A stretch of 64,000 nt of DNA. It comes from a virus. The stretch spans positions 32,001 through 96,000 of IMG/VR virus record IMGVR_UViG_3300025435_000010; one strand, written 5' to 3'. Below the pieces are notes generated by a model, which was not told where the DNA came from, did no database searches, and saw nothing but the letters and a program-made list of their open reading frames with translations. Shown here in pieces: positions 15,772 to 49,099 of this stretch. Position numbers and translations under genes: made by a program. The number at the start of each line of letters is the position of its first letter. Positions within the stretch are counted from its first letter, which is position 1.

Positions 15772-15788
15772 AAAACCGTTAAAATACT

Positions 15789-15817
15789 ATTATAAACTAC
15801 ACCATAACAGTAGTCAA
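15789..15817 (-). promoter_or_regulatory. sigma70-like promoter within the glycan island
   Basis: TTGACT-17-TATAAT, 17 nt before ATG of the TylF-like gene. Confidence 0.7.
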
Positions 15818-15826
15818 GTCTACTTC

Positions 15827-19648: not shown

Positions 19649-19653
19649 TTTCG

Positions 19654-21692: not shown

Positions 21693-22555
21693 ACATCAAT
21701 TGTATTAAAATATCTTGCAACCGCCACATAAAAGTTATATTTTGTCAAAAGTAATTTTTTATTATTTGTCTGTAGGGCTGATTTGCTCTGTAAGAATTGT
21801 TTAAGTTCATCGACATTATCTAATGTCGTAAGCTGATAGACATTATCAAAGAAGCGAGACACATCAGGGCATCCATAATAGATAGGTGTCGTGTCTGTTA
21901 AGATACAGTCAGTGAGTTTTTCTGAGAAGTAATCCGATTCAACAGAATTTTCAATAGCTATAGAAAATTCATAATCTAACAATCCATCCTTTTTATTAAT
22001 TAATGTACCCTTAATGCGTTCATCATTAATACCACTCTTCTCCCATTCATTACCGTAGATATCTATATCTAAATCTGTATCGAGTATCTGTTTTACAAAA
22101 TTAACTCGTTTTGAGTATATAGCCTGTGGATAAGAATCAACACTATTATAGGAAGTTATAATGCTACACTTTTTTGTTTTTGTAAAACTATTATTAATAT
22201 AATAATCTAAATTTTCACCGTTATAATAATCGAAGTGAGGAGCTAGTAGCCCGGGATAATATATATATTGCGGGTTATCGTGCTTTACATGGTGAATAAT
22301 ATGTTGACAACGAGCTTGTAAGTATTGCTCAAAATAACAAGCCCAGGTTGGTTCAAGCATTACCCCTAGTGTCTTTTCACGAGGAAAATCAAGATGTTTT
22401 TGCGAAAAATTTACAACAACAAGAAAATCAAAATTATCTTCAATAGTAAATTGAAAGTCTTTATTTTGATTTTCACTTGTAATAAAGACTCTACTAAATC
22501 GCTCAAAAATTTGCTCGTCTGTGCACCAGTTACAGGTTAGTCTTATCTTTTTCAT
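21689..22555 (-). CDS. GT10-like alpha-1,3-fucosyltransferase
   Basis: IDIYG..KKDGLLDYEFSIAIENS..DYFSEKLTDC..PIYYGCP. Confidence 0.85.
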   Translation of the reverse strand: MKKIRLTCNWCTDEQIFERFSRVFITSENQNKDFQFTIEDNFDFLVVVNFSQKHLDFPREKTLGVMLEPTWACYFEQYLQARCQHIIHHVKHDNPQYIYYPGLLAPHFDYYNGENLDYYINNSFTKTKKCSIITSYNSVDSYPQAIYSKRVNFVKQILDTDLDIDIYGNEWEKSGINDERIKGTLINKKDGLLDYEFSIAIENSVESDYFSEKLTDCILTDTTPIYYGCPDVSRFFDNVYQLTTLDNVDELKQFLQSKSALQTNNKKLLLTKYNFYVAVARYFNTIDV

Positions 22556-23390
22556 TTATAAAAGGACTCCATGTAGTAATATACTGCTCAAGTTCGGATT
22601 TATTCATTTTATCTACCTTGTCAGCTTCAATAAAATTATGGTTGTAATAAGGGTGATTATTTCTTACAGCATTCTGGTGAAAGAGATGAAAACAAATCGA
22701 ATAGTCTTTTGTATCTCTATAATCTTTTAATTCAAGTTTGAGAATTCTGTTAATAATTTCGTTGTCTTCAGCTCCCCAAGCAATAAAATTTGGATTATAT
22801 CCGCCTATTTTATAGAAGAGCTCACGATTAAACATAGCAATACCACCGACACTTGTATGTCTTGTAGGTGTACATCTTACCCCGAAATAATCATCACCGT
22901 AGCCGAGTTCAAGTTTTTCAAGTGGTGGTAATTCTTCAAGAAGTGAATTATAGTTATATACTGCATCAATAAATTTTTGATGTAATTGATATGAGGTATC
23001 GATGAAGAAGCCGTTATACGGGAACGCAATTACACAATCTTTCTGCGTTATAAGCGCATTATAACACTCGTCAATAGATTCCTTTGGTACAATTGCATCT
23101 GTATCAATTTGTATCAATACATCTGTTGTAGCAAATTTTGCGGCTGTATTGAGCCCCCAAGGCTTACGGTAGTAACTATTATTTGATATAAAATAAAAAC
23201 TTGTATTCTTTGGCCACTTTATATTATTAAGTTTTAGACAATGTACCACGTCATCTTCAACAATAATAAATTTAGCACCTATATACAAATTACTATAGTA
23301 ATTGAGAATTGTTTGGAGATTACGTACACGATCATCACTATCGTAACGAAAATGCATTATGAATGTAATGTTTGTATTAATATCGTTCAT
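22530..23390 (-). CDS. GT2/GT7-like glycosyltransferase
   Basis: DRVRNL..IDTD..VGGIAMF..GGYNPNFIAWGAEDNE..HLFH. Confidence 0.85.
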   Translation of the reverse strand: MNDINTNITFIMHFRYDSDDRVRNLQTILNYYSNLYIGAKFIIVEDDVVHCLKLNNIKWPKNTSFYFISNNSYYRKPWGLNTAAKFATTDVLIQIDTDAIVPKESIDECYNALITQKDCVIAFPYNGFFIDTSYQLHQKFIDAVYNYNSLLEELPPLEKLELGYGDDYFGVRCTPTRHTSVGGIAMFNRELFYKIGGYNPNFIAWGAEDNEIINRILKLELKDYRDTKDYSICFHLFHQNAVRNNHPYYNHNFIEADKVDKMNKSELEQYITTWSPFINEKDKTNL

Positions 23391-23983
23391 TTTATTATAA
23401 CTCCAATACCTTTCTCTTGATTTTGTTCAAATAAAAATTCTTTATACTCAGCAAACTCGCCTTGTTGCTTAATTTCTTGCCATAAATCATGTACCCCGCC
23501 TTCCTCATTTTTGCCAATATCATGAAAAGCAACAATACCACCCTTACGAACAAGTGAGCCATACATTTCGTAATCTCTCTTTACACCATGATAAGTATGG
23601 TCACCATCGATAAAAAGAAAATCAATTTGTTCATTCTTAAATATATCTTTTGCTTTATCAAAGGTAGATTGTTTTTGTGAAGCATCAGGAATTAGATATA
23701 ATTTTGTTTTTTTTGCTTTTGCCCAAGCCGGCCAAGCATTTTTATAATTATCTTCCTGCTTAGCTACACGCCAATCATGAGGCCCTACGAAATTACGTAC
23801 TGGTAAATCGATTGATAAAACCGTAGAGCCTTCTTGACTATAATGAATAAAGTGTTGCAATGTCCATCCATATAGAGATCCAATCTCTATAATTTTAGAT
23901 GGGTTGAGGTTTTTATACTCATTAAGTAAACCTTCAAATTCTTGAAAATTTTGACTGTTAAGTTCATTTTCTGCTATAATCAT
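23387..23983 (-). CDS. Class I SAM-dependent methyltransferase (Methyltransf_24-like)
   Basis: IIEIGSLYG..SIDL..FLFIDGDHTY..GGIVAFHD. Confidence 0.85.
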   Translation of the reverse strand: MIIAENELNSQNFQEFEGLLNEYKNLNPSKIIEIGSLYGWTLQHFIHYSQEGSTVLSIDLPVRNFVGPHDWRVAKQEDNYKNAWPAWAKAKKTKLYLIPDASQKQSTFDKAKDIFKNEQIDFLFIDGDHTYHGVKRDYEMYGSLVRKGGIVAFHDIGKNEEGGVHDLWQEIKQQGEFAEYKEFLFEQNQEKGIGVIIK

Positions 23984-24812
23984 TTTTTATTTGTTTTAGG
24001 GTTTTTATTACTTGCTCTTGACTAATATATGGTGGTTGATTTGGATAATGACCGTGTTTTTTAAGATATAACTCCCGGCCACCGTATACATTTTTCTCCC
24101 ACTGTTCAGATTTATTTGCAATTGAAGAATTATCAATAGCACCTGGTGCCTCAGTTAATAGCTCATGACTATTTGCAAGATCTGCAAACCACCAAAAAGG
24201 AGGATGATAGCCTGCCTTAATGATGCAATATGTATGATCTACGTGCTCCCAAGCGTTGTAAAATTGCTCGTCAATATACCCGACTTCTTCAATTACTTTT
24301 CTTGTAAAGAAAGAAAACATAGCCACTGTATGCTCATATAATGCAATCTTAACCGTCTTATAATCAATTATAAGTTTAGGATTTGGCTCTGTATCTTGAC
24401 TTAGAAGATGTCGATTATGCAGATCAAAATTCTGAATTGATTGCTTACGATTAAAAGGTGAACCAGGTCCATAGTTGAAATGCTGTATTCCTGATACTTT
24501 ACTCGCTTCAATATATTGCTTAAAAATTGAAGAATCTTTAATAAGCATATCATCTTCAATAATAAAAATATAATCGCATCCTTTTTCAAAAAGATCTTGT
24601 ATTGCTAGGTTTTTTGCTTTACCGACACCTATTCTCCCACTAGTGTGTTTTACAAAATTGACTTTTGGATGCGTATGTATAGTTTTCTTATCACCATCGT
24701 CAATAATGATGAGTTCGCTAATATTGGCGCTTACTCTATCAATGGTATCTAGTAAATTATTAAGATACTCAGGCCTTTCACATGTAATTATACCAACTCC
24801 TATTTTATCCAT
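23964..24812 (-). CDS. GT2 glycosyltransferase
   Basis: Start at MDKIGVGIITCER; IIIDDG; FIIEDDM; VGYIDE..WEH. Confidence 0.85.
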   Translation of the reverse strand: MDKIGVGIITCERPEYLNNLLDTIDRVSANISELIIIDDGDKKTIHTHPKVNFVKHTSGRIGVGKAKNLAIQDLFEKGCDYIFIIEDDMLIKDSSIFKQYIEASKVSGIQHFNYGPGSPFNRKQSIQNFDLHNRHLLSQDTEPNPKLIIDYKTVKIALYEHTVAMFSFFTRKVIEEVGYIDEQFYNAWEHVDHTYCIIKAGYHPPFWWFADLANSHELLTEAPGAIDNSSIANKSEQWEKNVYGGRELYLKKHGHYPNQPPYISQEQVIKTLKQIKNDYSRK

Positions 24813-24846
24813 GGTTAATTTATATATTGTATCATAAATATAATCA

Positions 24847-25827
24847 ATGGCAACAAATCCATCCAATAGTACTTCAGTTAGTATAGTTAATTTACCGCAA
24901 GCGCAGCTTGCTACTGCTACAGATTATTTGATCTTACAAACATCAAATGGTACACAAATCATTCCTTTTGGTAATTTTAATGTCGTACGTACAGATATTA
25001 ACGGAAATGCGACTATTGTAGGTAATGTTACTGGTTCAAATGCATATTTTACGGGTAATGTTGGTGTTAATTCGTTGACAGCATCAAGCTTTTATACATC
25101 GAATCCATCATATGGCGTTGATATCGGTTGGACGGATTTAGCTCCAATATTAGGTATTAATAGCAATAATTATTATGACAGTTTTACTGTTGTTAATGGA
25201 CTGGTAATAAGCGCTACACCAACGAGTGTTGATTATTTTAATAACCCTATTTATACATCTTTAAATGTACAGCTCACTGCTCTTTCTGCACAAACTGTTG
25301 GTGTTGGTGGTACTGTATACTCAGCATTAACAAGCTTATCATCAACAACAAGTACAAATCTTTATAATACGTCAGCAGCACTTACAACACAAACACAAGC
25401 AGGTACAGCATATGCCTATGCACTTAATAATACAAACCTGCAGTTAATGACTGCTTATGCTACAGCTTTTTATGATAGCACGACCACTGGTACCATCTAC
25501 CAATTAGTAGGTAACCCAGCTGGTGCCGTTGGTGCCGCGACAATAACTTTTCCAAACTTTTTTGTAAATAGTGCTCTTAAAGCAAATAATATTCAAGCAT
25601 CAAATTTCATTATAACACCTAATGCAACAACGTATGCACAGGCTTCAGCGTTTTCAGTTATTTCACCGTTTGTATCAGCAGGTACAATTAATACAGATCC
25701 GAGCGGAAAGAATTTATTAGTTACTATTGCTGCTATTTCTAATACGAGTACGTGGCCTGCCGGATTTACAAGTAATCCAATTCCCATTAACGTGCGCATA
25801 CTCGCAACGTATAATGGTTATTATTAA
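24847..25827 (+). CDS. Putative virion fibre/structural protein
   Basis: 326 aa very rich in T/S/N/A/G, few charged residues; SIVNLPQA..TDYLIL fibre-type N-terminus; TAAATA 6 nt before ATG. Confidence 0.55.
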   Translation: MATNPSNSTSVSIVNLPQAQLATATDYLILQTSNGTQIIPFGNFNVVRTDINGNATIVGNVTGSNAYFTGNVGVNSLTASSFYTSNPSYGVDIGWTDLAPILGINSNNYYDSFTVVNGLVISATPTSVDYFNNPIYTSLNVQLTALSAQTVGVGGTVYSALTSLSSTTSTNLYNTSAALTTQTQAGTAYAYALNNTNLQLMTAYATAFYDSTTTGTIYQLVGNPAGAVGAATITFPNFFVNSALKANNIQASNFIITPNATTYAQASAFSVISPFVSAGTINTDPSGKNLLVTIAAISNTSTWPAGFTSNPIPINVRILATYNGYY

Positions 25828-26613: not shown

Positions 26614-27366
26614 TTACACACGCAGTGCTTTATCCCAAATTACCAATTGCAAACGAGGACTAAAATTCACGCAGAGCGCTTTTGCATACTCTGCTACTGC
26701 TACACTACGCTCAACGTGCTCGTTTCGCGACCCGCAACACGGCATAAACCAAATATGACTCTTCGGTATATTAATACCGTGCTTATCATCAACATACTTC
26801 TCCCAAATCTCATTAATATCCTCAGCAACATTAATAACAAACTTAAAACCCGAATGGTGAGCTTTATGCCATTTAAGAACTTCAGGCTTATAAGTTTTTT
26901 CCTCTGGATCGCCATTAGAGCGAAGCTTAGGGGATGTAGTAAACGTTGCCTTAAATTCTGTTACCCAACGTTCGTCTGGTAAAATTGTCGCGTTTGTCTC
27001 AAAGTCGATACGCGGTATAAAACCATAACGCTCTCTAAATGCTTCCATAAAGCGTAAAAGTGGTTCTTGTCTAAGCATCGGTTCACCGCCGGTGATTTTT
27101 AAAATAGCTCTGTCCTTAAGATGTTTAATAAAGTTATTTTTTTCATAAAATTCAAACATATCCTCGAAACTCCATTTATTTCTTTTCGACCATGAGATAT
27201 ATGAGTCACAGCCATGAGGCGAGTCTGGGCTTGCAAACGCTTTACAGGTTAAGTTACAACCGAAAAGTCTCAAGAATACTGATGGTTGACCTATAAACAT
27301 ACCTTCACCTTCGATAGTAAGGAATCCGGGCCCATCGTCACTGATTAGCAAATAATTTTCATCCAT
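26614..27366 (-). CDS. queE: 7-carboxy-7-deazaguanine synthase QueE (radical SAM)
   Basis: FLTIEGEG..PSVFLRLFGCNLTC..GCDS..ITGGEPML..ETN..SPK..SPRLQ. Confidence 0.92.
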   Translation of the reverse strand: MDENYLLISDDGPGFLTIEGEGMFIGQPSVFLRLFGCNLTCKAFASPDSPHGCDSYISWSKRNKWSFEDMFEFYEKNNFIKHLKDRAILKITGGEPMLRQEPLLRFMEAFRERYGFIPRIDFETNATILPDERWVTEFKATFTTSPKLRSNGDPEEKTYKPEVLKWHKAHHSGFKFVINVAEDINEIWEKYVDDKHGINIPKSHIWFMPCCGSRNEHVERSVAVAEYAKALCVNFSPRLQLVIWDKALRV

Positions 27367-28959: not shown

Positions 28960-29350
28960 GAGCTTTTAGTTCTGCAAGTGCTCTAATAACTGCATCATTA
29001 GCTTGTTGTATATCGCTTGCAGATTGATCTTTTAATGTTGGTTTAAAATTAATATTTGTTTGACTATCAGACGTAAGTCCGTATTCTTGAGCTATTTTTG
29101 ACAATGTTATTTGTAATTGATCTACAAGGGGATCTGGCTGTCTCTCAATAAGAGCATCCATGCTTATATTAGCCGGTGATGCTGTTACTGCTACATGCCC
29201 GATTGGCTTAACTTGTGTATTATATATAGTTTCAAGTTTTTGATCATTATTAAAAAAAGAATCAACAAAATCAGGAGCTAACTTACCTTGAATTTTTAAA
29301 TGGTCTGATATTTCACCGCCATAAAGCTGGTGAGTAAACTCTGCGTTCAC
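28946..29350 (-). CDS. Hypothetical protein
   Basis: 134-aa ORF coupled to the queD stop. Confidence 0.55.
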   Translation of the reverse strand: MNAEFTHQLYGGEISDHLKIQGKLAPDFVDSFFNNDQKLETIYNTQVKPIGHVAVTASPANISMDALIERQPDPLVDQLQITLSKIAQEYGLTSDSQTNINFKPTLKDQSASDIQQANDAVIRALAELKALNEI

Positions 29351-30024
29351 CGACTTCCCCAGCTAATGTTATCAAATAACCCTGAATAACCATTTGTTAC
29401 ATTATTACGTAGTGGGACAGGCTGATTATTAGGTGTAGGGTTAGTTGTTGTTACAGTAGTTTGTGTGATTTGTTCAAGTTCCTCAACAGGGATATGTGTC
29501 GAAGCAGCTTGTTCGTTGACAGTTGTCGGTGTTTCGGTTATCTGTTTGTCAGAACTATTAACAATCGACCAAGCTGTTGTTCTGACTGATTCAGAATAAA
29601 TTGCTGAATTCGCTTCATGCTCAAATACTTCTACTTTTTCTACCCAACAACGATCACCATACTTTTCATTAAGATATGTTTGAGCTGCTTTGTAGCACCA
29701 TTCAGCTGTTTTTTCAATTCCAACAGCATCCATGACACGTAGATCGCATCCACCAGCATCATGTAATTGATGAAATAATGGTAATAATGGATCATCTTTT
29801 GAGATGCAAAGTGTATGATCGAATTGTTTATTAAGAATAGCTTTAAGGTCCTTTAATCCACCGAAATCAACTGACCAGTTATTACTGTCGAGTTCGCGAC
29901 ATTCAAAATGGAATTTTGCCTTAAGTTGATAACCGTGAACTAGATGACAATGACTATGGGTAGCTCCAAATTGTCTGAAGGCACAAGATCCAAGATCGAT
30001 AAGTTTAGTACTCTGATAACTCAT
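29347..30024 (-). CDS. queD: 6-carboxytetrahydropterin synthase QueD with low-complexity C-terminal extension
   Basis: SCAFRQ..SHCHLVHGY..VDFGGLK..FDHT..GIE..VEVFEHEANSAIY. Confidence 0.92.
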   Translation of the reverse strand: MSYQSTKLIDLGSCAFRQFGATHSHCHLVHGYQLKAKFHFECRELDSNNWSVDFGGLKDLKAILNKQFDHTLCISKDDPLLPLFHQLHDAGGCDLRVMDAVGIEKTAEWCYKAAQTYLNEKYGDRCWVEKVEVFEHEANSAIYSESVRTTAWSIVNSSDKQITETPTTVNEQAASTHIPVEELEQITQTTVTTTNPTPNNQPVPLRNNVTNGYSGLFDNISWGSR

Positions 30025-31665: not shown

Positions 31666-32316
31666 ATGTCTGAATATACAAAAGAGTATAAACTTAAATT
31701 TGCTAACGGAAATCATCCTCATTCATCTGAAGAGAGACAAGCTATTATCGATAACGCTTCAAAAGCATATGAAGCCTATCTAGACGCTCTTGGCTTTGAT
31801 TGGCGTAACGATCCAAACAGTACCGGTACACCATTGAGAGTAGCTAAAGCATTCGTCAATGATCTTGCAAGTGGTTGTTATGATAACCCTCCGAAGATTA
31901 CATCATTTCCTAGTAATGGATATGATGGAATGGTGTTTCAAGGTGGTATCCCTGTAAAGTCACTCTGTAGCCATCATCACCTTGCTTTTACCGGTGTCGC
32001 ACACGTTGCTTATATACCCTCTGCTGAGGGTCGAGTAATCGGGCTATCGAAGCTTAATCGAATTGTAGAATTTTATGCCCGTCGTCCACAAATTCAGGAA
32101 GGTCTCACAGTGCAGATTCATGATGCTATTAATGGCGTATGTGAGTTGAATAAGGGTGTTGCTGTCATGGTTAGCGCTACGCATACCTGTGCATGTCTTC
32201 GTGGTGTAAAACACGATGGATGTGAAATGAAGACCTCAAAACTTAGTGGAGACTTCTTAGAGGATGGTGCTACAAGAGCTGAATTTTATAACTTTGTAGC
32301 TAATATGAAGAGCTAA
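31666..32316 (+). CDS. folE: GTP cyclohydrolase I FolE
   Basis: TPLRVAK..SLCSHH..GLSKLNRIV..RPQIQE..HTCACLRGV. Confidence 0.96.
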   Translation: MSEYTKEYKLKFANGNHPHSSEERQAIIDNASKAYEAYLDALGFDWRNDPNSTGTPLRVAKAFVNDLASGCYDNPPKITSFPSNGYDGMVFQGGIPVKSLCSHHHLAFTGVAHVAYIPSAEGRVIGLSKLNRIVEFYARRPQIQEGLTVQIHDAINGVCELNKGVAVMVSATHTCACLRGVKHDGCEMKTSKLSGDFLEDGATRAEFYNFVANMKS

Positions 32317-32723
32317 ACGCCTCTCTTAACATCTACCAAAGCGTTGAGCCGTCTAATAAACGGCTCTCCTATTAATACTTGCTGTTCATTCTCAGCACGA
32401 TCAGCAATACTAAATGTTACATCATTGTAACTTTTGTTGTTTAAAACAATATTAAGTACAACCGTTGGGCGGCTTTCGATGTTACCGCTACCAATATTAA
32501 TATCAATACTGCCAGTACGAGGGAGTGTAATTTTTTTATCATTGATGGTGGTAAAGGTTATGGTATCATCACCATTGTCATCAATATCTACACCGTGTAG
32601 TACATTGTAGGCTTCATTTCCACTATCTATTTTTGCGACAACAGATCCAATCCCATCTATTGTTATATATTCTGTAACACCGAGAATAGGTCTATTTTGT
32701 GTAAAATCTTTAAATGTTTTCAT
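32313..32723 (-). CDS. Retropepsin-like aspartic protease (RimK-associated type)
   Basis: ILGVTE..AKIDSG..RPTV..FSIADR..VLIG; leader MKTFKDF. Confidence 0.75.
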   Translation of the reverse strand: MKTFKDFTQNRPILGVTEYITIDGIGSVVAKIDSGNEAYNVLHGVDIDDNGDDTITFTTINDKKITLPRTGSIDINIGSGNIESRPTVVLNIVLNNKSYNDVTFSIADRAENEQQVLIGEPFIRRLNALVDVKRGV

Positions 32724-32727
32724 AAAA

Positions 32728-32976
32728 TTATTTTTTCTTCCAAGATATTCGTTTAGAACTTCTTTTAAGTCTCTTCCTACTATTACACATGCTCATTGTC
32801 GGTCTACAGGCTGGGTAACCTCTACGTTTTTCTCCTTTTTGTCTACCACACGCCTTACCTGTCTTACAGTCAACCCATCCTTTACCGTGATTACGTGTGA
32901 ACCATCCATGAAGACCTTGTTTTTTCTCTTTCTCAAATCCTTCTAGGATAAAATTAACTAAAGAGTCAAATTTCAT
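32728..32976 (-). CDS. Small basic Cys-containing phage protein
   Basis: GLHGWF..WVDCKTGKACGR..YPACRP; leader MKFDSLVNFILE|G. Confidence 0.65.
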   Translation of the reverse strand: MKFDSLVNFILEGFEKEKKQGLHGWFTRNHGKGWVDCKTGKACGRQKGEKRRGYPACRPTMSMCNSRKRLKRSSKRISWKKK

Positions 32977-33125
32977 TTTTTCTTCCAGATTTTACCTTGA
33001 CGGCACTTTACTACTGCTCCAGATTTATAAGCAGATGTCTTTTTACCATATACAGAATCAGCTCTGCGTAAGCAGCGATCGCGTTTAACTTTTTCTTCAG
33101 TTAAGAATTGCTTAAAGGTTAACAT
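32973..33125 (-). CDS. Small basic protein, 50 aa (below ORF-track cutoff)
   Basis: Manual translation MLTFKQFLTEEKVKRDRCLRRADSVYGKKTSAYKSGAVVKCRQGKIWKKK; overlaps both neighbours (ATGA overlap with the downstream gene). Confidence 0.75.
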   Translation of the reverse strand: MLTFKQFLTEEKVKRDRCLRRADSVYGKKTSAYKSGAVVKCRQGKIWKKK

Positions 33126-33427
33126 TTCCATCTCCTTCTTGCAGCGCATCCTCTTGTCTTTTTACCAGCGCATCCGCCAGCAGGAATCCAAGCAGAACTT
33201 CTAGCACAAAAGCTTTTTCTACGTTTTGCAGCCTTGGATCCCTTCTTCGCCTTCCCAGTGACTGGCGCTTTAAGATGAGAGCCTGTAGCGCGATTGTACT
33301 TAGCTCTACCCTTAGCTGTTAGACCACCCCCGCGACTAACAGGCAGTTTTTCACCGCGCTTAATAGATAAGCTAGGTCCACCTTCTTCAAGTACTTGTAT
33401 AAAACGTGATTCGAACAAACATTGCAT
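33119..33427 (-). CDS. Small basic phage protein (DUF6321-like)
   Basis: GGLTAKGRAKYNRATGSHLKAPV..RRKSFCARS..RRWKC; TAAATA 5 nt before ATG. Confidence 0.7.
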   Translation of the reverse strand: MQCLFESRFIQVLEEGGPSLSIKRGEKLPVSRGGGLTAKGRAKYNRATGSHLKAPVTGKAKKGSKAAKRRKSFCARSSAWIPAGGCAGKKTRGCAARRRWKC

Positions 33428-33462
33428 AATAATATTTAATGTGAGAGAATAAATATTTACGT

Positions 33463-34104
33463 ATGCGTAGCTATATTGACGATCTTAATGCACTTTATAA
33501 CACAAAAATTTTCTTAAAGGAAAGTGCTGACCTTGGACCAGAAGGTATTGGACTGCCTTACGGTGAATATTCAGAGGAATGCGATGATTGTAAGAATGGC
33601 GCGCCGATGAGAAAGTGTTTAAAGTGTAAGATGCCTGCAACAGAGTGCGATTGCGATGAGGAAGAAGTTGCAAGTGAGGATGAAATCATCTTTTCAAGAG
33701 AACATCCGCACGGTGAAGAGGATGATTTTGCAGAAACAGGTGAACATCCTGAACATAAAGCTTCTAATATGGTAAAGCAGAATTTATATAGAATCACAAA
33801 AATGGCTGCTATGTTATATGATATTATTCCTGATGATGAAAATATCGAACCATGGGTGGCAGATAAGCTAAGTAAAGCGACAGACAATATTAATAGTGTT
33901 CTTGGTTTTAAGGACTACGAAGAATATAAGAGACGCGTAGATCATGATATTGAAATTGAAGAAAAGACAGAACAGGATCTCTATAAAAGCATAGATGACG
34001 GCGGTGAATCTTTAATTAGTAAAATTAAAGAAATTATGCGTGGACAGCCAAGAGATAGAGTTGAAGATGCTGTCTACGGTATGATCAAAACACTTGAAGC
34101 TTAA
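33463..34104 (+). CDS. Acidic hypothetical late protein (putative internal head protein)
   Basis: Acidic, Cys cluster, IEPWVADKL; TAAATA 7 nt before ATG. Confidence 0.6.
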   Translation: MRSYIDDLNALYNTKIFLKESADLGPEGIGLPYGEYSEECDDCKNGAPMRKCLKCKMPATECDCDEEEVASEDEIIFSREHPHGEEDDFAETGEHPEHKASNMVKQNLYRITKMAAMLYDIIPDDENIEPWVADKLSKATDNINSVLGFKDYEEYKRRVDHDIEIEEKTEQDLYKSIDDGGESLISKIKEIMRGQPRDRVEDAVYGMIKTLEA

Positions 34105-34745
34105 GGTTTCTTTTTGCGCGGTATAGCAGGTTTATAATTCTGCTTAATGTCGTTGAATAAAATTTGTGCCTGATCATCAGGCATACCCGTCGGTAATATT
34201 TTTCTAAAATTTACAAAATCGTTATTTAAAACATACTCACGAGCCTTTGTACCGCTAATACCTGATACATCATCACTATCAGGATCGCGTTCACCAGCAG
34301 ACTCAACTCTAAGGCTTGTATATCCAAGACGTTTTTCTAAATCTGGATGATCTTTATATGGCTCAAACAGTGATGTATAATTAGCAACGCGATCGCTTCC
34401 GCATACAAGCACTAGATCTGTGTATCCCTTACCTACAAGATATTTAACAGCATCAAATATTGATATAATTGATTCGTCATCAATAAAGTTAATTTTTGGT
34501 AGAGCTTTATCTAAAGCTGTTAATTTATTATTATAAGAAATTGGATTTTTTTTAGGATCGTTACTTCTCGATAAAATAATAAAACTCTCTCTGTGTTCAG
34601 CTCTTGCTATCTCTATAACTTTTGAAATTAACTTTTCATGACCCAGTGTAGGTGGATTCATTCTACCAAAAGTAAAGACTGCACGTCCATTGTTTGTAGG
34701 CTTAATATCTCTAATAATATTTTCTACGACAATATTAAATTTCAT
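34101..34745 (-). CDS. HxGH-class nucleotidyltransferase (NMNAT/PPAT/cytidyltransferase-like)
   Basis: VFTFGRMNPPTLGHEKLI..KNP..VCGSDR..SAGERDPD..ISGTKAR. Confidence 0.85.
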   Translation of the reverse strand: MKFNIVVENIIRDIKPTNNGRAVFTFGRMNPPTLGHEKLISKVIEIARAEHRESFIILSRSNDPKKNPISYNNKLTALDKALPKINFIDDESIISIFDAVKYLVGKGYTDLVLVCGSDRVANYTSLFEPYKDHPDLEKRLGYTSLRVESAGERDPDSDDVSGISGTKAREYVLNNDFVNFRKILPTGMPDDQAQILFNDIKQNYKPAIPRKKKP

Positions 34746-34746
34746 A

Positions 34747-35856
34747 TTACATTCCTTGGTAATCTAAATGTCTGCCGCCCTGGTCGCCCATAACAGTGTT
34801 AATATAACTATGACCATTTTTTTCATTATCGTAGTTCATATTATCATTATCAAAATACCATTCAGCATCATTAATATTGCTAGCACCCTCTAGCTCTTCT
34901 TCATCTTCTTTATGTGCACCAAATTTTGCGCCCATAAAGTGAGGACTATTAACCTTAAACATTAAATTACCAGCCTTTATAACATACCCTTCAATATCAC
35001 CAAGCAGTCCTTCAGTCTTAAGAAGATTATTAACAATCTTGGTATATATTTCCTTTTGTATGGGTAATAATCTTTCTTGAATTTGAGCAGTAAGTGTACG
35101 TCTATGGCTTACAAGTGCATTTCTACCAGCACCGCCTGCTGTAATTTTTTCCTTAACTTGTTCTAATTCTTGTTCAATTTTTAAAATCTGATTGAATGCT
35201 TTTTGTGCCTTGAGAACCTCTGGTCTAAGATCAATTGAATGAAATAAATCAACATTTGGTAAAATAAATTTTACTTCTTTATCATTGATAGCAATTAATT
35301 TTTTTCTAATAGAGTCGACATTAACACCTTCTTCTGCTTGAATGCTAATGACAATAAATGTTGACCATGCACCGAGTTTTTCTTTATTATACTGAGCTAC
35401 AACAAAGCTTACTTTACCCGATGTTGGATCTGCCTCTAAAGCATTAGGTGAATAAAGCCATTCAAGCTGTACAGTGACATTATGTTTACCTATAATAGGT
35501 AATACAAGGTGCTTGATACGGTCAAAGCTATTTACAAACGCCTCTCTTGCAGGTAGATATTTTATGGCAGTTGCAAAGCCTTCAGGTTCATATACTTTAC
35601 CAGAATAGCTAGAACGTACAAAGAAGCCGTGTTCATCGTTACCCACTTTAAGAGCCATTCCATCAACTTTTTCTGTTACTGTTGAATTTTCAGGAGTAAT
35701 TTGACCTTTGTTTTGCTGTAAAAAGGTAATAAATTGCTTAAAATTTTCCGGTGACATCGAATAAAGTTCTGGTTTATTCTGTGAATAGAGATGCTGTATA
35801 CCAATACGATCACCTTCTTTAGTAGCTTCTGTAATAAATTGTTTAAACGTTATCAT
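34747..35856 (-). CDS. ATP-dependent ligase-superfamily nucleotidyltransferase (RNA ligase-like)
   Basis: Motif I TEKVDG, III QLEW, IIIa TFIV, IV IEGYVIK, V MFKV; leader MITFKQFITE|A. Confidence 0.65.
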   Translation of the reverse strand: MITFKQFITEATKEGDRIGIQHLYSQNKPELYSMSPENFKQFITFLQQNKGQITPENSTVTEKVDGMALKVGNDEHGFFVRSSYSGKVYEPEGFATAIKYLPAREAFVNSFDRIKHLVLPIIGKHNVTVQLEWLYSPNALEADPTSGKVSFVVAQYNKEKLGAWSTFIVISIQAEEGVNVDSIRKKLIAINDKEVKFILPNVDLFHSIDLRPEVLKAQKAFNQILKIEQELEQVKEKITAGGAGRNALVSHRRTLTAQIQERLLPIQKEIYTKIVNNLLKTEGLLGDIEGYVIKAGNLMFKVNSPHFMGAKFGAHKEDEEELEGASNINDAEWYFDNDNMNYDNEKNGHSYINTVMGDQGGRHLDYQGM

Positions 35857-36548
35857 ATAAATGTATGCCCGGTTGTAGCTTCAGCATCTTGAACAATTTC
35901 TTTTGCCTTTTCAGCTCCGTATATCCAAATAAGCTTTCGAACTATTGCCTGTACATTATTTAGATCATTAGCTGTTGCTTTCTTGTTAAAAATAGTTTTA
36001 GCAATAGTATCAGGATCTTTTGTAATAATTTGTTTTGTATTCCTATCTACTAAACCATTTATTGATAATGAATAACCCTTATTCTTTGCTACAGCTGAGA
36101 GAAGTATATTGCGGTCCTTACCTTTAAACGGTGCCGTTTCATTTGAAGCATAGAACCATTTTAGGTAATCAGGATCATCACTAAACATAAAATCAACCTG
36201 AACATGTTTTTTTGTAACATTACCTTGTTTATCCCAGATAGGTGAAAGAAAATGTACAGATATTCCCGACTTTTTTGTACCAATAGTATCTACACTATGT
36301 TGTTTCCAATAAGCTTGTAATTTATTTTCAAGTTCTGTTTTATTTACTGTTTTTGAATCAACTACAAGATCAATATCACCTGAATCAGCCGCTTTACCTG
36401 TTGAACCTAACATATTATCTTTAAGAGGCAGACCTGTAATTTCCTCGAGCTTGTGTACAGTAGACGCAACATCCTCACGTGTAATACGACATGTATTACT
36501 AAAAACATTACCCCCCTCTTTAAGAAAATATTCTTTAAATGTTAGCAT
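35853..36548 (-). CDS. Pol-beta-superfamily nucleotidyltransferase
   Basis: LGSTGK..SGDIDLVV (GS + DxD), third acidic residue in VQVDFM; leader MLTFKEYFLKE|G. Confidence 0.75.
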   Translation of the reverse strand: MLTFKEYFLKEGGNVFSNTCRITREDVASTVHKLEEITGLPLKDNMLGSTGKAADSGDIDLVVDSKTVNKTELENKLQAYWKQHSVDTIGTKKSGISVHFLSPIWDKQGNVTKKHVQVDFMFSDDPDYLKWFYASNETAPFKGKDRNILLSAVAKNKGYSLSINGLVDRNTKQIITKDPDTIAKTIFNKKATANDLNNVQAIVRKLIWIYGAEKAKEIVQDAEATTGHTFI

Positions 36549-36984
36549 CTTTGATATATGGATCTTGCTTTTTCATTGCAGCAAGTATATGTTTATATTT
36601 GTTAATAAAGTTACTCGTATTAATACTGCTAATGTATTGCTTAACGTTTATATTATCTAAACGCTCAGGATTATCAGCGTACATTTCATTCTGTTTAATA
36701 GCAGCTTCTAAAGCTGTTTGTACAGGAAAAGCATTCTCAGCAGTAATTTCTGTTCTAAAAATTTCATCTAAAGCACCTGCCGGAAAAGACATCGCAGTCG
36801 CTTTCGCAAGTAACTTTACAAGACCAACATACCCTTCAGGTGCAACTGGAGCAAGTTCATTAGCTACCGGTTCAGGTGTTGCGTTAGGATCCGGAGCAGT
36901 GGCATCTTGTGTTGTATCTGGCGCTGTTTCTCCATCTTCGCTTATTATACTCCACTGCTCATTAATTTTATCAAGAAATTTCAT
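36535..36984 (-). CDS. Hypothetical late protein
   Basis: First gene of the NTase operon; TAAATA 6 nt before ATG. Confidence 0.6.
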   Translation of the reverse strand: MKFLDKINEQWSIISEDGETAPDTTQDATAPDPNATPEPVANELAPVAPEGYVGLVKLLAKATAMSFPAGALDEIFRTEITAENAFPVQTALEAAIKQNEMYADNPERLDNINVKQYISSINTSNFINKYKHILAAMKKQDPYIKDANI

Positions 36985-37000
36985 TGTAAGTATTTAATAC

Positions 37001-37621: not shown

Positions 37622-37650
37622 ATTATAACCTCATAATTTAAATTTTGCAA
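37622..37650 (-). promoter_or_regulatory. sigma70-like promoter, likely leaderless
   Basis: TTGCAA-17-TATAAT-6 nt-GTG. Confidence 0.65.
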
Positions 37651-38056
37651 GCTCTTGTTTTGGAGCCTTACCAATCCTCACATTGCATATACCGTTATAA
37701 TAATCATCTCTTAGGAGTACATCCTCACCTAACTGTTCTTTAATTTCATAATAAGCTAACGCCCACTTTGAATCACAGGTACGTAAGATTTTAAAAATAA
37801 ATTTATCCTTTCCATACTTCTTGATATCTGCATTAAGTTCATTTGATGAGCTTGTATATGATTTCCAGTCAGACTCCTTATAATCAATTCGATTATTCTT
37901 TTTACCCTTTAATGGCTTACGCTTAATACGACTTGTACATTGCTTTTTACCAATATATTTTTTATTGCTTATTGTATTGATAATCAAATAAATGAACCCG
38001 AACGTATTCTCGCTAACATTTACACCATCATTTAAGATCCAATGTCCACTATCCAT
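37631..38056 (-). CDS. Short GIY-YIG nuclease (Seg-like)
   Basis: FGFIYLI..KYIGKK..ESDWKSYTSSS..YYE..YYN. Confidence 0.85.
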   Translation of the reverse strand: MDSGHWILNDGVNVSENTFGFIYLIINTISNKKYIGKKQCTSRIKRKPLKGKKNNRIDYKESDWKSYTSSSNELNADIKKYGKDKFIFKILRTCDSKWALAYYEIKEQLGEDVLLRDDYYNGICNVRIGKAPKQELAKFKL

Positions 38057-38067
38057 ATAGATAGTTA

Positions 38068-38316
38068 TTACATTCCCGTTGAATATATACCTCTACGCTG
38101 TACAGGTACTTTTCTTTTCTTCTTCCTACCTATCTTCTTACCACCTAAAATTGATGGAATTCGTGCATCACCTGGTGCATATGCTGCATCGTTTTGGGAG
38201 GGAAATTGATTTCCGTAATTACCTGAAGTAGCTGGACCAGTAACAGCACCTGTTCCCCCTACAACATTTGCGAGTTCTGTTAATAATTGATCTACAAGTT
38301 TATTAAAATTGCTCAT
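38068..38316 (-). CDS. Small protein with a capsid N-arm-like motif and a basic tail
   Basis: YGNQFPSQNDAAYAPGDARIPSIL is nearly identical to a gp23 segment; tail KKIGRKKKRK. Confidence 0.75.
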   Translation of the reverse strand: MSNFNKLVDQLLTELANVVGGTGAVTGPATSGNYGNQFPSQNDAAYAPGDARIPSILGGKKIGRKKKRKVPVQRRGIYSTGM

Positions 38317-38741: not shown

Positions 38742-40201
38742 TAAAGTTTGATTATGACGAGAAAAAAAGATTAGGTATTATATCGGGTGATTTATTCGAC
38801 GAAATACGAGAATATTTTTCTGTAAAAAATGAAGCAGCACACTTTATGCGTAGACGTGGTAGGTTTATGCCTGCTAGGACATATGCTATAACACCTACAG
38901 GTAGATTTGAACCTTGTTTGTATACGGAAATTAAAAAGTTTATAACGAGTCAGCAATATGTAGGTGAGATTGAATATAGTAAAGAATTATTCGAACAAGT
39001 TGTACCTGCAAGACATGGCTGGCATCAGCAATTAGATTTTAAAAGCGAAATTTATCCTCTTAAGTTAAATTTAAGAGACTATCAAGAAGATATAGTTAAG
39101 GAATGTATGTTTAATGGCAGAGGTACAATTATCTTAGCAACAGCAGGTGGTAAAACCCTAACATCAGCCTCTTTAATATCGAAAATTTACAGCTTGTACA
39201 TGTCTGCATATAATAAAAAAAGCTTTAAATGTCTTTTTATTGTACCGGATAGAGGTCTTGCATCACAGACTTATCAAGATTTTATTGATTATGGTGTACC
39301 GTTTAGTGTCTCAAAATGGACTGGGGATGATGACTTAAATCTATCTACTAATGTTGTTGTATCTAATCTTGGTATCCTACAAAGTAAAAATAGTAATTTA
39401 GATTGGCTTGAAGATATTGATCTTCTTATCGTTGATGAAGTACATAAAATTCGTAAAGGCAATAAAATAAATGATATTCTTAAGAAGATTAAAACACCAT
39501 ATAAATTTGGATTTACAGGTACAATGCCTGAAGAGAATCTCGATCAATGGAATATTATAGGTAAGATAGGTCCTATAATTTATGAGAAAAATAGCTACGA
39601 CTTAAGACAGGAAAGCTACGTTAGTAATGCATCTATTCAAATTATAAAATTAATTCATAAAAACGAACCAAAGAAAAGCGATAACGGTAACGCGTATAGA
39701 GAAGAAATAGAATATCTTACTACCTCTATTTTTCGTAATGAACTCATAGCAAGACTTGCTAAGGGATTAAACCAGAATTCACTTATTATGGTTGATTATA
39801 TTCAACACGGGGAGCTGTTATTTGATATTATTCAACGAATGATGCCTGAAAAACAATGTTTCTTTATTCGTGGAGAAGTAGAAGTTGAAGAAAGAGATCG
39901 TGTCAGACAACTTATGGAGACTAATAGTAATGTTGTTGTAGTTGCTATATCGAAAATATTCTCAACTGGTATTAATATTAAAAACCTACACTATATTATT
40001 TTTGCATGTGGCGGTAAAGCTAAGATAAAAATCGTACAATCTATTGGTCGAGGTCTTAGGTTGCATAAGGATAAATCTAAGCTTATAATATTTGATATTA
40101 CTGATGATCTGCGCTATAGCGCAGCCCATGCATTAAAAAGACAAGCACTTTATGAAAAAGAACACATCCCGTTTGCAATCAAAAACATCGAAGAAAAGTA
40201 A
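38738..40201 (+). CDS. uvsW: UvsW DNA helicase
   Basis: LRDYQ, ATAGGKT, DEVH, FGFTGT, FSTGINIKNLH, VQSIGRGLR. Confidence 0.94.
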   Translation: MIKFDYDEKKRLGIISGDLFDEIREYFSVKNEAAHFMRRRGRFMPARTYAITPTGRFEPCLYTEIKKFITSQQYVGEIEYSKELFEQVVPARHGWHQQLDFKSEIYPLKLNLRDYQEDIVKECMFNGRGTIILATAGGKTLTSASLISKIYSLYMSAYNKKSFKCLFIVPDRGLASQTYQDFIDYGVPFSVSKWTGDDDLNLSTNVVVSNLGILQSKNSNLDWLEDIDLLIVDEVHKIRKGNKINDILKKIKTPYKFGFTGTMPEENLDQWNIIGKIGPIIYEKNSYDLRQESYVSNASIQIIKLIHKNEPKKSDNGNAYREEIEYLTTSIFRNELIARLAKGLNQNSLIMVDYIQHGELLFDIIQRMMPEKQCFFIRGEVEVEERDRVRQLMETNSNVVVVAISKIFSTGINIKNLHYIIFACGGKAKIKIVQSIGRGLRLHKDKSKLIIFDITDDLRYSAAHALKRQALYEKEHIPFAIKNIEEK

Positions 40202-40763
40202 GCCGAAGAAAGAGCCTAAAATTCTTGATCTTAATCTTATTGGTAATGAGACAGAGGATATTGTTGATGTCTTACCTATTGAAGTTATTGAATCATTACC
40301 TATTGTCGATGAAGCAAGTCCTCCTAAAAAAGTAAAACCCAAGGATAAGGTTCATTATGTTAATAGTAGAGAATTTGAAGATGAAATTAAAAGTTACTAT
40401 AATACAGATGTAATGACAGATAAGTTATGCGAAAGTATTAACAAAATTGCTAACGGTTTATCTTATGCTCCAAACTTCTTAAATTATTCTTATAAAGAGG
40501 ACATGGTCGGTGACGCTGTTGTTAAGATGTTTTCAGCTTTAAAGAATAAAAAATTTAAGATTGATTGTGGATTTAGCCCATTTTCGTATTTTACTACGAT
40601 TGCTTTTCATGCTTTTATTAATAGAATTAAGAAAGAAAAAAAACATCACGAAGCTATTAATGAGTACCGGGATAAGGTGTACACAGAATTAATGTTGAAT
40701 CCTGAAGAGAATAACGGTGCACATATTTACGTTGAGCCAACCGGTGACGATCCAGAAGAATAA
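40152..40763 (+). CDS. gp55: Late transcription sigma factor (T4 gp55-like)
   Basis: HYVNSREF..KIANGLS..NFLNYSYKEDMVGDA..PFSYFTTIAFHAFINRIKKEKK. Confidence 0.93.
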   Translation: MKKNTSRLQSKTSKKSKPKKEPKILDLNLIGNETEDIVDVLPIEVIESLPIVDEASPPKKVKPKDKVHYVNSREFEDEIKSYYNTDVMTDKLCESINKIANGLSYAPNFLNYSYKEDMVGDAVVKMFSALKNKKFKIDCGFSPFSYFTTIAFHAFINRIKKEKKHHEAINEYRDKVYTELMLNPEENNGAHIYVEPTGDDPEE

Positions 40764-47968: not shown

Positions 47969-49099
47969 ATGGATAAAGATTTACTTAAAACCCTTTCTGT
48001 TATTGACGAGCATAATTCAGATGCTTGTTTTCTTTCTGAAAATGCACTTTCAAATTTTACTGAGTGTTATGATACCGGTTGTTATGCTCTTAATGCTATT
48101 TTAACTGGTGATTTAAGGAATGGTGGTGTACCGCAAGGTCGTATTATTGGCTTTAGTGGTGAGTCAGGAACAGGTAAAACTCTCATTACCGGTAAAATTT
48201 TAGCTAACGCTCAGAAGAAAGGTGTTATCCCGGTTATTTTTGATTCCGAAATTGCTGTAGATAAAAACTCCGTCCGTGGCGTCGGACTCGATCCTGCTAA
48301 CGTTAAGTACGTACCAATTGATACTATTGAGAAGTGTCGTAACCAAGTTAGTGCCTTACTTGACAAGGTCATTGCTAATAATCAGCATGGTAAGATTATT
48401 ATCTGTATTGATAGTTTAGGTAATCTTGCATCACAGAAAGAGCTTGACGATGCTCTTAAGGATAAGTCAGCTGTTGATATGGGTATGCGCGCTAAGGCTC
48501 TTAAGTCTATGCTTAGAACCTTAACTTATAAGGCCGCTAAAGCTCAGGTTTCTATTATCTTTGTCAATCATACATATTCAGATCCTGCTGCTATGTATCC
48601 ATCTTTGATCAAGTCACAAGCTGGTGGGTCTGGTCCAGTTTATATGGCGAGTATTCTCGTTCAGCTTGCTAAGAGAAATGAAAAAGCAGGCGAAGGTGAG
48701 TTTGGCGGTGTTGAAGATAATAAGCTTTCTGAAGCTAACAAATATAGCGGTGTAACGCTTCGAGCACTTACTGCGAAGAATCGTTTTATTCCTCAATTCC
48801 TTGAGATTGAGATGTATCTATCATTTAAGTCAGGACTAAACAAATACAGTGGCTTGCTTGCCATGGCTACAGCAAGAGGTATTGTAGAGCAGAACGGCGC
48901 TACTTATACTGTCGGAGTCGATGGCGGTAAGTATAAAAAAGGTGATAAGCTTGGTTATGCAAAGAACTTTACTAAGGACGCATCGTTTTATGAAGATTTT
49001 ATTATACCGGCCTTAGACGAAGCGCTTAAAACAGATTATCGTTATCATCAAGCCTCTGATGATCTTATTGATGATGTGGTAGAGCAAAACGCAGAATAA
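47969..49099 (+). CDS. uvsX: RecA-like recombinase UvsX
   Basis: DTGCYALN..GESGTGKT..FDSE..IDSLGNL..DMGMRAK..NHTY..GGSG. Confidence 0.94.
   Translation: MDKDLLKTLSVIDEHNSDACFLSENALSNFTECYDTGCYALNAILTGDLRNGGVPQGRIIGFSGESGTGKTLITGKILANAQKKGVIPVIFDSEIAVDKNSVRGVGLDPANVKYVPIDTIEKCRNQVSALLDKVIANNQHGKIIICIDSLGNLASQKELDDALKDKSAVDMGMRAKALKSMLRTLTYKAAKAQVSIIFVNHTYSDPAAMYPSLIKSQAGGSGPVYMASILVQLAKRNEKAGEGEFGGVEDNKLSEANKYSGVTLRALTAKNRFIPQFLEIEMYLSFKSGLNKYSGLLAMATARGIVEQNGATYTVGVDGGKYKKGDKLGYAKNFTKDASFYEDFIIPALDEALKTDYRYHQASDDLIDDVVEQNAE

Follow-up and report, generated by a model that had tools for sequence, protein, structure and literature searches.

What use would a T4-like phage have for a polymerase-like nucleotidyltransferase (NTase), a ligase-like enzyme and a HIGH-motif enzyme that are encoded side by side in one operon, two of them behind N-terminal peptides resembling the capsid-targeting sequences (CTSs) of T4? 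The question is raised by four genes on the minus strand, at positions 36984-34101, of a 64,000-nucleotide stretch of viral DNA (IMG/VR record IMGVR_UViG_3300025435_000010, positions 32,001 to 96,000), hereafter the window, to which all coordinates refer unless stated otherwise. We find that the three enzymes, unlike in fold, appear to form one conserved, virus-restricted and functionally linked module, and we tentatively read them as a kit that is carried in the phage head and injected to mend breaks in nucleic acids. A first-pass annotation of the window had described a late operon of four packed genes behind a TAAATA box that encodes three unrelated enzymes with T4-like leaders, had suggested a pre-packaged enzyme set, and had named catalytic-residue conservation among homologues and co-occurrence or fusion elsewhere as checks.

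The four open reading frames (ORFs) are tightly packed on the minus strand. They encode p1 (149 aa; 36535-36984), p2 (231 aa; 35853-36548), p3 (369 aa; 34747-35856) and p4 (214 aa; 34101-34745); the ORFs of p1 and p2 share 14 nt, those of p2 and p3 share 4 nt, and there is a gap of 1 nt between p3 and p4. A late-promoter-like TAAATA box (36991-36996, minus strand) stands 6 nt ahead of the start codon of p1, the first gene (GTATTAAATACTTACA-ATG). The three genes behind it have no such box, as would be expected of a single late operon. Across the genome, the distribution of TAAATA suggests a late-promoter-like signal. The heptamer ATAAATA occurs in 40 copies, 30 of which lie no more than 60 nt upstream of a gene start, and TAAATA is found within 40 nt before the start of 53 genes, most commonly at spacers of 5 nt (16 genes) or 6 nt (12 genes). 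The protease, neck genes and the gene in the scaffold position are among the 53, and the genome also encodes a gp55-like late sigma factor (40152-40763; PHROG/Pfam scans). The protein p1 is acidic and of low complexity; no Pfam family passed the threshold, PHROGs and NCBIfam assigned it to no family, its best score in Atlas (0.76) was uninformative, and it is kept upstream of the NTase gene in the two closest loci (L004 and L005).

The structural model of p2 indicates a minimal family-X polymerase fold with palm and thumb. The AlphaFold model was built with 62 homologues (predicted local distance difference test, pLDDT, 93.7; residues 1-11 below 50), and its top 50 Foldseek matches are all family-X DNA polymerases. 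When the model was compared exhaustively with 48,161 PDB representatives, all nine chains with Z>=8 belonged to family X, with 148-184 residues aligned; they comprise Pol beta, TdT, Thermus PolX, Pol lambda, Leishmania Pol beta, African swine fever virus (ASFV) Pol X and Pol mu. Pol beta (4jwn_A) aligned over 162 residues (Z 11.2, root-mean-square deviation (rmsd) 3.3), and ASFV Pol X (5hr9_A) superposed over 148 of 176 residues (Z 9.7, rmsd 3.1). Because nearly the whole of ASFV Pol X superposes on p2, the model points to a minimal palm-plus-thumb PolX-type enzyme. Terminal uridylyltransferases (TUTases), cGAS/DncV-like NTases (CD-NTases), MenT and CCA-adding enzymes match the palm only (77-101 residues, Z<=7.6). 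The 8-kDa deoxyribose-phosphate (dRP) lyase and helix-hairpin-helix (HhH) subdomains of canonical family X are missing from p2, as they are from ASFV Pol X, the whole chain of which aligned to p2. The best-fitting alignments (rmsd 3.2-3.4) begin at about Pol beta residues 142-149, and a few looser ones reach residue 93. The catalytic triad D58/D60/D119 is formed by the GS..DID motif (LGSTGKAADSGDIDL) and a third aspartate in VQVDF, and G48, G51, S56, G57, D58, D60, Q117 and D119 are invariant in the 62 homologues. Sequence searches with p2 gave only noise in Pfam at E<=1, no PHROG family and no PDB sequence match; some JGI records call its homologues 'PolX'.

By its predicted structure, the second enzyme, p3, is a lysine nucleotidyltransferase whose nearest relatives are nick-sealing RNA ligases. 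The model (pLDDT 86.4, with a disordered acidic C-terminal tail at residues 325-369) best matches the Naegleria RNA ligase (6vtg_A; Z 10.1, rmsd 3.6, 183 residues aligned), followed by REL1 (Z 9.3), T4 Rnl2 (8.4), T4 Rnl1 (8.2) and DNA ligases (about 7). All of its top 50 structural matches are ligases or ligase domains but one, a chain of the monkeypox virus (MPXV) polymerase complex. The 72 homologues keep motifs I, III, IIIa, IV and V; among them, K63, D65 and G66 of the KVDG motif are at least 90% conserved and E132, Y156, E289, G290 and K301 are invariant. No OB domain is visible in the model, in which motif V is followed by two short helices and then disorder; a helical hairpin is inserted at residues 211-279, and an additional conserved R..GI.H motif lies ahead of motif I. 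The sole Pfam ligase match of p3, to RNA_ligase, falls below the cut-off (E 1.2e-3), and p3 has no PHROG family and no direct match to the hidden Markov model (HMM) of DUF6267 (PF19782). Alignment of the p3 family with DUF6267 in hhalign gave 96.3% probability (E 1.8e-9, 240 columns), and from these profiles p3 is best described as belonging to a sister family that is distantly homologous to DUF6267. A tblastn search with p3 gave no match among 50,697 phage records, and PDB sequence searches returned only noise for p2, p3 and p4 as single sequences and for the ligase profile.

The third enzyme, p4, is classed by its motifs and family matches as HIGH-motif and cytidylyltransferase-like. It matches Pfam PF01467 (CTP_transf_like; 23.4 bits, cut-off 21) and phage 'cytidyltransferase' PHROGs (phrog_3041, E 1.2e-46), and carries TLGH and ISGTKAR motifs in which G35, H36, S164 and R169 are invariant in 33 homologues. 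We found 2127 homologues of p4, with 562 phage records, mostly cyanophage 'cytidyltransferase'. Searched against PDB, the p4 profile matched only MJ0951 (E 0.002, at the C-terminal motif) and phosphopantetheine adenylyltransferase (PPAT; E 0.28), and these matches give no assignment to the nicotinamide mononucleotide adenylyltransferase (NMNAT) subfamily, to the PPAT subfamily or to any other.

The genomic linkage of these enzymes carries the argument for a module. The p2 family gave 351 matches at E<=1e-3 in a set of 5.8 billion proteins, and at least 585 relatives were confirmed in IMG/VR among the 600 pattern matches listed. A prokaryotic set comprising one genome each of 185,579 species gave 11 p2-family loci, all in contigs of metagenome-assembled genomes (MAGs), and the family appears to be large and restricted to viruses. 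We kept 80 viral loci from the IMG/VR matches, on which all locus counts are based. A DUF6267-like ORF is present in 75 of them, including 22 matches of at least 600 aa (fusions), and a p3-type ligase in three more, so that NTase and ligase are paired in 78 of the 80 loci. The two loci without the pair are L004, the sequence of which ends at the NTase, and L043. Downstream of the NTase, or joined to it in one chain, the typical locus encodes a protein of about 377 aa with KWDG...GGEGYV...KLV, which is DUF6267. Among 1.84 billion representatives, 229 matched in a profile search; they included 147 new sequences, ten of which hold NTase and ligase domains together, in either order. One of the proteins (P0178, 789 aa) joins NTase, ligase and p4-type HIGH domains, with a leader (MKTFKQHFRLINE) ahead of GGS.

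The HIGH enzyme is joined to the ligase in further proteins. Ligase and HIGH domains are fused in P0225, P0259 and P0317, and several proteins of about 1,000 aa have HIGH-like Pfam matches, some below cut-offs, beside a ligase domain. Viral clusters in Atlas combine HIGH with DUF6267 (78 members) and HIGH (CTP_transf_like) with DUF6321 (93 members). A HIGH gene directly follows the ligase gene in three of the 80 loci by HMM (L005, L006 and L007, all T4-like), and L009 has a similar arrangement by eye only. Such HIGH-like genes carry leaders of their own, MKTFKHFLIE in L007 and MRTFNQFFKE in L006. In cyanophage Syn9, gp183 (DUF6267, E 1e-98) adjoins gp184 (HIGH, leader MKKFSAFLSE); the PolX-like gene was not found in Syn9 or S-CREM2. 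A ligase-like gene immediately precedes the NTase gene in phages Atu_ph07 and Phosso, and in PA5oct it is found two genes upstream.

Syn9 gp182, PA5oct 0229 and the 485-aa gene upstream of the L009 NTase were tried as further members and rejected, since jackhmmer found no mutual homology among them and they have no Pfam family. Ahead of the NTase gene, 69 of the 80 loci (e.g. L038:5742-6008) encode a conserved helical protein of about 85 aa (MKK.TRSIL.EL...) with no family, and so do Phosso and Atu_ph07 (L002:1788-2036; L003:1989-2240); it is not seen in the T4-like loci.

Up to this point the first-pass annotation has held up well. The coordinates, overlaps and 6-nt spacer agree with its four packed genes behind a TAAATA box, and the operon does look late-expressed, with the same box at head genes and a gp55-like sigma factor in the genome. 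Its three enzyme classes stand in modified form: the 'Pol-beta NTase' with GS..DID..D keeps its class and motifs and narrows to the minimal family-X fold of the p2 model, the ligase-superfamily enzyme with motifs I, III, IIIa, IV and V and no obvious OB domain narrows to an RNA-ligase-like relative of DUF6267, and the HxGH 'NMNAT/PPAT-like' enzyme keeps its HIGH class (PF01467) and loses NMNAT, the model of which it matches only below the cut-off. Both of the checks named there came out positively, with catalytic residues invariant or near-invariant in all three families and with the 78 paired loci and the fusions up to the triple protein. 'Unrelated' is correct of the folds, but the enzymes appear to belong to one conserved virus-restricted module.

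We next turn to the leaders. The p2 leader, MLTFKEYFLKE (residues 1-11; 36516-36548, minus strand), is disordered in the model and ends in L-K-E ahead of the predicted mature start GGN. The p3 leader, MITFKQFITE (residues 1-10; 35827-35856, minus strand), has F4, F7, I8 and E10, and that of p2 has the same pattern plus one residue. In T4, the first 10 residues of IPIII are reported to suffice for packaging, CTS residues 4 and 7 to govern targeting and residues 8 and 10 processing, and the protease gp21 to cut after L/I-X-E (PMC9026906). By sequence, both leaders fit these published rules. The core pattern M.T[FYW][KQREN][DEQKN][FYWL], scanned at six-frame start codons of the 131-kb genome, gave four matches, all within 32313-36548: two are p2 and p3, and the others are a basic protein of 50 aa and a retropepsin-like one. 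The strict leader pattern was present in 42 of 119 NTase homologues, 45 of 54 close ligase homologues, 29 of 144 ligase representatives and 7 of 120 HIGH homologues, and in none of 469 internal-Met controls.

The junction between leader and enzyme is conserved too. Among the 120 listed NTase homologues, 110 have the GGN core within their first 60 residues, and in every one of these glutamate directly precedes GGN and leucine (83), isoleucine (22) or valine (5) stands two residues earlier, with 5-31 leader residues before GGN. The other ten are N-terminally truncated, have a variant core (SGN/VGN) or have a longer N-terminal domain. In the locus copies, [LIV]-x-E lies ahead of GGN in 78 of 80. 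Leaderless jumbo-phage homologues start MSGN or MGG, and the M-S/G-G-N/x starts of PA5oct, Phosso, Atu_ph07 and two IMG/VR loci coincide with the predicted mature end. One natural NTase-ligase fusion has a leader-like ...IKTE directly ahead of its ligase core. The genome encodes a gp21-type prohead protease (Peptidase_S77; 4014-4676, minus strand; PF03420 E 2.5e-33, 115.7 bits against a cut-off of 27; phrog_207 E 1.2e-52), which is presumed to remove the leaders.

Annotations of related proteins point in the same direction. PA5oct EST35_0231, a p2 homologue (phmmer E 9.5e-16, small database), is annotated 'structural protein, ESI-MS/MS', and S-CREM2 gp154, a p4 homologue (32% identity, E 3e-27) that starts MKNFSSFLTE, is annotated as a virion protein. 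Cytidyltransferase/NMNAT-like proteins have been reported in several cyanophage virion proteomes (PMC10665884). The proteins p2 and p3 themselves are probably packaged, and may then be cleaved, judging from their leaders and from these homologues. For the claims of the first-pass annotation about leaders and packaging, the two peptides are present as described, fit the T4 rules and coexist with an S77 protease; the pre-packaged set gains from the leaders, the protease and the virion annotation of p2 and p4 homologues, and does not extend to the ligase-like homologues, which carry no such flag.

Two further observations concern leaders of other types. In a second phage group (L055, L056, L038, L053 and others), the ligase and small neighbouring proteins start MRAFEFLTE, MRLVEFKE or MKAKEFIRE; these also end in [LI]-x-E and are perhaps a lineage-specific packaging tag. 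Syn9 gp186 (L084:6515-7243), a basic Cys-rich protein, has MLTFKQLSE at its N-terminus and LLTFKQFNE internally, and this repetition suggests a polyprotein that is cut into two packaged pieces.

We tentatively favour the explanation that the operon encodes a head-packaged, protease-processed and injected gap-fill-and-seal kit for nucleic-acid breaks, and we rate its chances as approaching, without reaching, even. It builds on what was observed, namely the gene order, the folds of the predicted models, the conserved motifs and leaders, the co-occurrence and fusion of the genes and the homologues annotated as virion proteins; from these we infer that these particular proteins are packaged and cleaved, and also the substrate and the role of p4. 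The module would be built around p2 and p3, with p4 joining them in T4-like phages. The operon would be transcribed late. The 10-11-residue leaders of p2 and p3, and the shorter, weaker one of p4, would bring the proteins into the prohead scaffolding core in the manner of a CTS, the gp21-type S77 protease would cut the leaders off after [L/I/V]-x-E, and the mature enzymes would enter the cell with the genome. Before phage gene expression, p2 would add one or a few nucleotides, possibly ribonucleotides, at a 3'-OH in gapped or nicked duplex, and p3 would seal the 3'-OH/5'-phosphate nick via a lysyl-AMP intermediate, the most likely target being strand interruptions in the incoming phage DNA. 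p4 would make or recycle an adenylate-containing dinucleotide, with NAD-like chemistry, that supports sealing; its 5'-5' pyrophosphate-linked adenylate chemistry could consist in rebuilding NAD+, in making ATP from NAD+ and pyrophosphate (PPi), or in adenylylating 5'-phosphates.

Nick-sealing RNA ligases such as Rnl2 and Rnl5 require a duplex in which the 3'-OH may be, or is preferably, that of a ribonucleotide, and several family-X enzymes insert ribonucleotides. Taken together, these properties make a ribo-patch-and-seal repair of incoming DNA coherent. A fuller version of this proposal, in which a widespread phage family-X-type polymerase, a DUF6267-superfamily ligase and a HIGH adenylyltransferase make up an injected kit for ribonucleotide patching and RNA-ligase-style sealing, is unlikely to hold in all its parts. 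The HIGH enzyme in such a kit would supply or recycle the adenylate donor (ATP from NAD+ and ligase pyrophosphate) or adenylylate 5' ends.

Several points weigh against a packaged repair kit for DNA. As p2 lacks the 8-kDa and HhH subdomains, its binding to DNA gaps is only putative. The RNA-ligase relatives of p3, together with its missing OB domain, argue for an RNA or RNA-containing substrate and not plain DNA. The [LIV]-x-E motif is also kept where the leader is only 5-7 residues long and in 626-aa fusions from large contigs, and may thus be part of the mature enzyme and not a cleavage site. The ligase-like PA5oct EST35_0228 is not flagged as structural, and the DUF6267-like S-CREM2 gp87 is leaderless and has no virion-protein flag. 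The authors of the cyanophage proteome study themselves warn that detection in virions may reflect carry-over of abundant proteins (PMC10665884). The N-terminus of p4, MKFNIVVE, is weakly leader-like, its score against the archaeal NMNAT model NF002243 is 13.7 bits against a cut-off of 127, and its role in the module is a guess. As the genome is only about 60% complete, companion enzymes may also be unseen.

The main rival, to which we give some credence while thinking it rather doubtful, is a kit for RNA, in particular tRNA, as the first-pass annotation had also suggested: p2 would restore one or two lost 3' nucleotides in the manner of RlaP and p3 would religate, so as to counter anticodon nucleases or other RNA-cleaving defences, with packaging allowing immediate action. 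The nearest structures to p3 (NgrRnl, REL1, Rnl2 and Rnl1) are all RNA ligases, its sole Pfam ligase match is RNA_ligase, and NTases that travel with RNA ligases are a described theme (PMC7824862). RlaP (PF10127) is reported to add one or two nucleoside monophosphates (NMPs) to RNA 3' ends (bioRxiv 10.64898/2025.12.29.696909). It accompanies RNA ligases in RNA repair operons and in jumbo phages, and it shares with p2 the genomic coupling of a Pol-beta-superfamily NTase to an ATP-dependent ligase and the logic of adding nucleotides and then ligating. However, p2 gave no match to PF10127 at E<=1, and a six-frame search for RlaP in the genome gave a best score of 8.9 bits, elsewhere in the genome and below the cut-off. 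RlaP consists of an NTase and a helical domain, whereas p2 has a PolX-type thumb, and the whole p2 fold including this thumb is that of templated family-X enzymes, of which RNA-specific NTases match only the palm. The partners of RlaP, namely Rnl1/Rnl2/RtcB and kinase/phosphatase healing enzymes, are absent from this module; no polynucleotide kinase/phosphatase, 2H, RtcB or Hen1 is found in the operon or the fusions. The 131-kb genome also has just two tRNA genes, Asn(GTT) and Gln(TTG), both outside the window (genome C1:1934-2100).

Quite improbable, in our estimation, is late intracellular repair without injection, in which gaps and nicks in concatemers are mended before headful packaging in phages that lack a gp30-type ligase, and the N-terminal peptide has another role or is a relic. 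The late-promoter context would suit this explanation, as would the cyanophage DUF6267 proteins, which are leaderless and have no virion flag, and a PF01068 DNA ligase was not found in the genome that contains the window (about 60% complete), in Syn9 or in S-CREM2. However, PA5oct has both a PF01068 ligase and a DUF6267-like gene, and its NTase homologue is annotated as found in virions. The leaders, moreover, are closely T4-CTS-like, change in step with phage type and are retained by three different enzyme families.

Very improbable, finally, is a role in cofactor or signal metabolism, which unites two options of the first-pass annotation: p4, as an NMNAT, would restore NAD+ in the face of NADase defences, while p2 and p3 would make or destroy a nucleotide signal. 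The protein p4 does belong to the HIGH nucleotidylyltransferase superfamily, its relatives are termed 'NMNAT-like' in the cyanophage literature (PMC10665884) and the HIGH domain is fused to NT5C and P-loop kinase domains in other viruses, but CD-NTases match p2 in the palm only (Z 5-6.5, against about 10-11 for family X), for which reason p2 was set aside as a CD-NTase or signal synthase, p3 retains every polynucleotide-ligase motif, the NTase-ligase pair mostly has no HIGH gene nearby (3 of 80 loci by HMM), and p4 falls far below the NMNAT family-model cut-off.

The injected gap-fill-and-seal kit that we favour has parallels in several known systems. The T4 internal proteins and Alt share with it the leader of about ten residues, in which positions 4 and 7 are aromatic, position 8 is I/L and position 10 is E, the L/I-X-E cleavage motif, the S77 protease, late expression and a nearby cluster of small basic leader-bearing proteins. 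The cargo here differs, in that it consists of three nucleic-acid or nucleotide enzymes and not of restriction inhibitors or an ADP-ribosyltransferase, and its packaging and cleavage are predicted. ASFV repair enzymes are present in virions. ASFV Pol X is, like p2, a minimal palm-plus-thumb family-X enzyme without the 8-kDa domain and fingers, and has a virus-encoded ligase as its partner. Unlike in ASFV, however, p2 is partnered by an RNA-ligase-like enzyme that has no OB domain and is not a DNA ligase, no apurinic/apyrimidinic (AP) endonuclease is seen, the host is bacterial, and p2 has no detectable sequence similarity to the ASFV enzyme. In the literature, the Pol X/ligase base-excision system of ASFV is credited with mending damaged viral genomes (PMC9353306). 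The ribo-patch-and-seal proposal parallels bacterial LigD as well as this ASFV pair.

For p3, the Rnl5-type ligases of Naegleria and Deinococcus and the T4 Rnl2 type provide the best match of the adenylyltransferase domain and share motifs I, III, IIIa, IV and V. Unlike them, p3 lacks the Rnl5 N-terminal module and the Rnl2 C-terminal domain, and has gained the 211-279 hairpin and the R..GI.H motif. The cyanophage 'cytidyltransferase' or NMNAT-like virion proteins are homologous to p4 and share its leader type, but they are longer and their genomes lack the PolX-like gene.

CTS packaging and NTase-ligase repair pairs are both already known kinds of system. A search of open-access full text gave no description of the PolX-like family, of DUF6267-superfamily ligases or of their union with HIGH enzymes and CTS leaders, and no paper that mentions DUF6267. 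In the accessible text of a 2022 review of phage DNA polymerases, ASFV is the sole virus named for family X (PMC8775771). If the favoured explanation is correct, it would give a function and context to the PolX-like family, with its at least 585 IMG/VR matches, and to DUF6267, and likewise to the long-unexplained 'cytidyltransferase' of 562 mostly cyanophage records. It would also credit phages with a family-X polymerase, which they have not yet been, and extend T4-type capsid targeting from inhibitors to a multi-enzyme repair set. It would further suggest that genome integrity at entry is a selected trait in aquatic phages, in response to sunlight or oxidative damage of virions or to host nicking defences. 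The leaders could serve as ready-made packaging tags, and the enzymes are small candidate end-joining tools for nucleic acids.

The operon lies close to a group of small late genes on the minus strand at 32313-33427, comprising the retropepsin-like protein, two basic Cys-rich proteins (82 and 50 aa) and a DUF6321 protein. The DUF6321 basic protein (33119-33427, minus strand; PF19846 E 2.8e-18) has a TAAATA box 5 nt upstream and is a family fused to HIGH elsewhere. The 50-aa basic protein (32973-33125, minus strand) carries the leader MLTFKQFLTE, and the retropepsin-like protein (136 aa; 32313-32723, minus strand) has the N-terminus MKTFKDFTQ...GVTE. The latter matches NCBIfam RloA3 (E 3.4e-7) far below the cut-off and Pfam Zn_protease (E 5.8e-5) below the cut-off. 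The cluster resembles a T4-style variable internal-protein locus, and its gene order is kept in L005. Elsewhere, a looser scan found a CTS-like leader, MKSFKDFIFE, on a 115-aa basic protein (61845-62192, minus strand) with TAAATA 5 nt upstream; its gene adjoins a head-closure gene, and it has no Pfam family.

The record as a whole is 131,144 bp long, with 36% G+C, and is about 60% complete (CheckV). PHROG and Pfam scans found a T4-like gene set, including a gp23-type major head protein (966-2513, minus strand), portal, neck and sheath-stabiliser genes, and the replication and recombination genes for gp43 polymerase, UvsX/Y/W, gp46/47, gp41, gp61 and gp32. The head protein has about 32% identity to cyanophage gp23, and the genome is therefore that of a deep-branching, uncultured T4-like phage; a blastn search with the operon gave no match among the 50,697 phage records. 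Genome-wide, TAAATA boxes stand mostly just 5-8 nt ahead of start codons, a spacing that would leave late mRNAs with almost no leader or make the box overlap the ribosome-binding region.

QueE-, QueD-, FolE- and QueC-like genes (26614-27366, 29347-30024, 31666-32316 and 49099-49812, respectively) together suggest 7-deazaguanine modification of the phage DNA, and several glycosyltransferases and methyltransferases are encoded at 15043-24866. Between uvsY and the operon sits a SegE-type GIY-YIG homing endonuclease gene (37631-38056, minus strand; PF19835 E 4.9e-29), for the family of which the PHROGs label 'NAD synthetase' is wrong. Nearby, at 38068-38316 on the minus strand, is an 82-aa protein (MSNFNKLVDQLLTE...) in which 18 of 22 residues are those of major head protein residues 84-105 (E 7e-11), with NQFPSQND.AYA.GDAR.P.IL in common. 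It looks like a partial copy of the N-terminal region of the capsid protein fused to a basic tail, and it is also kept in L005.

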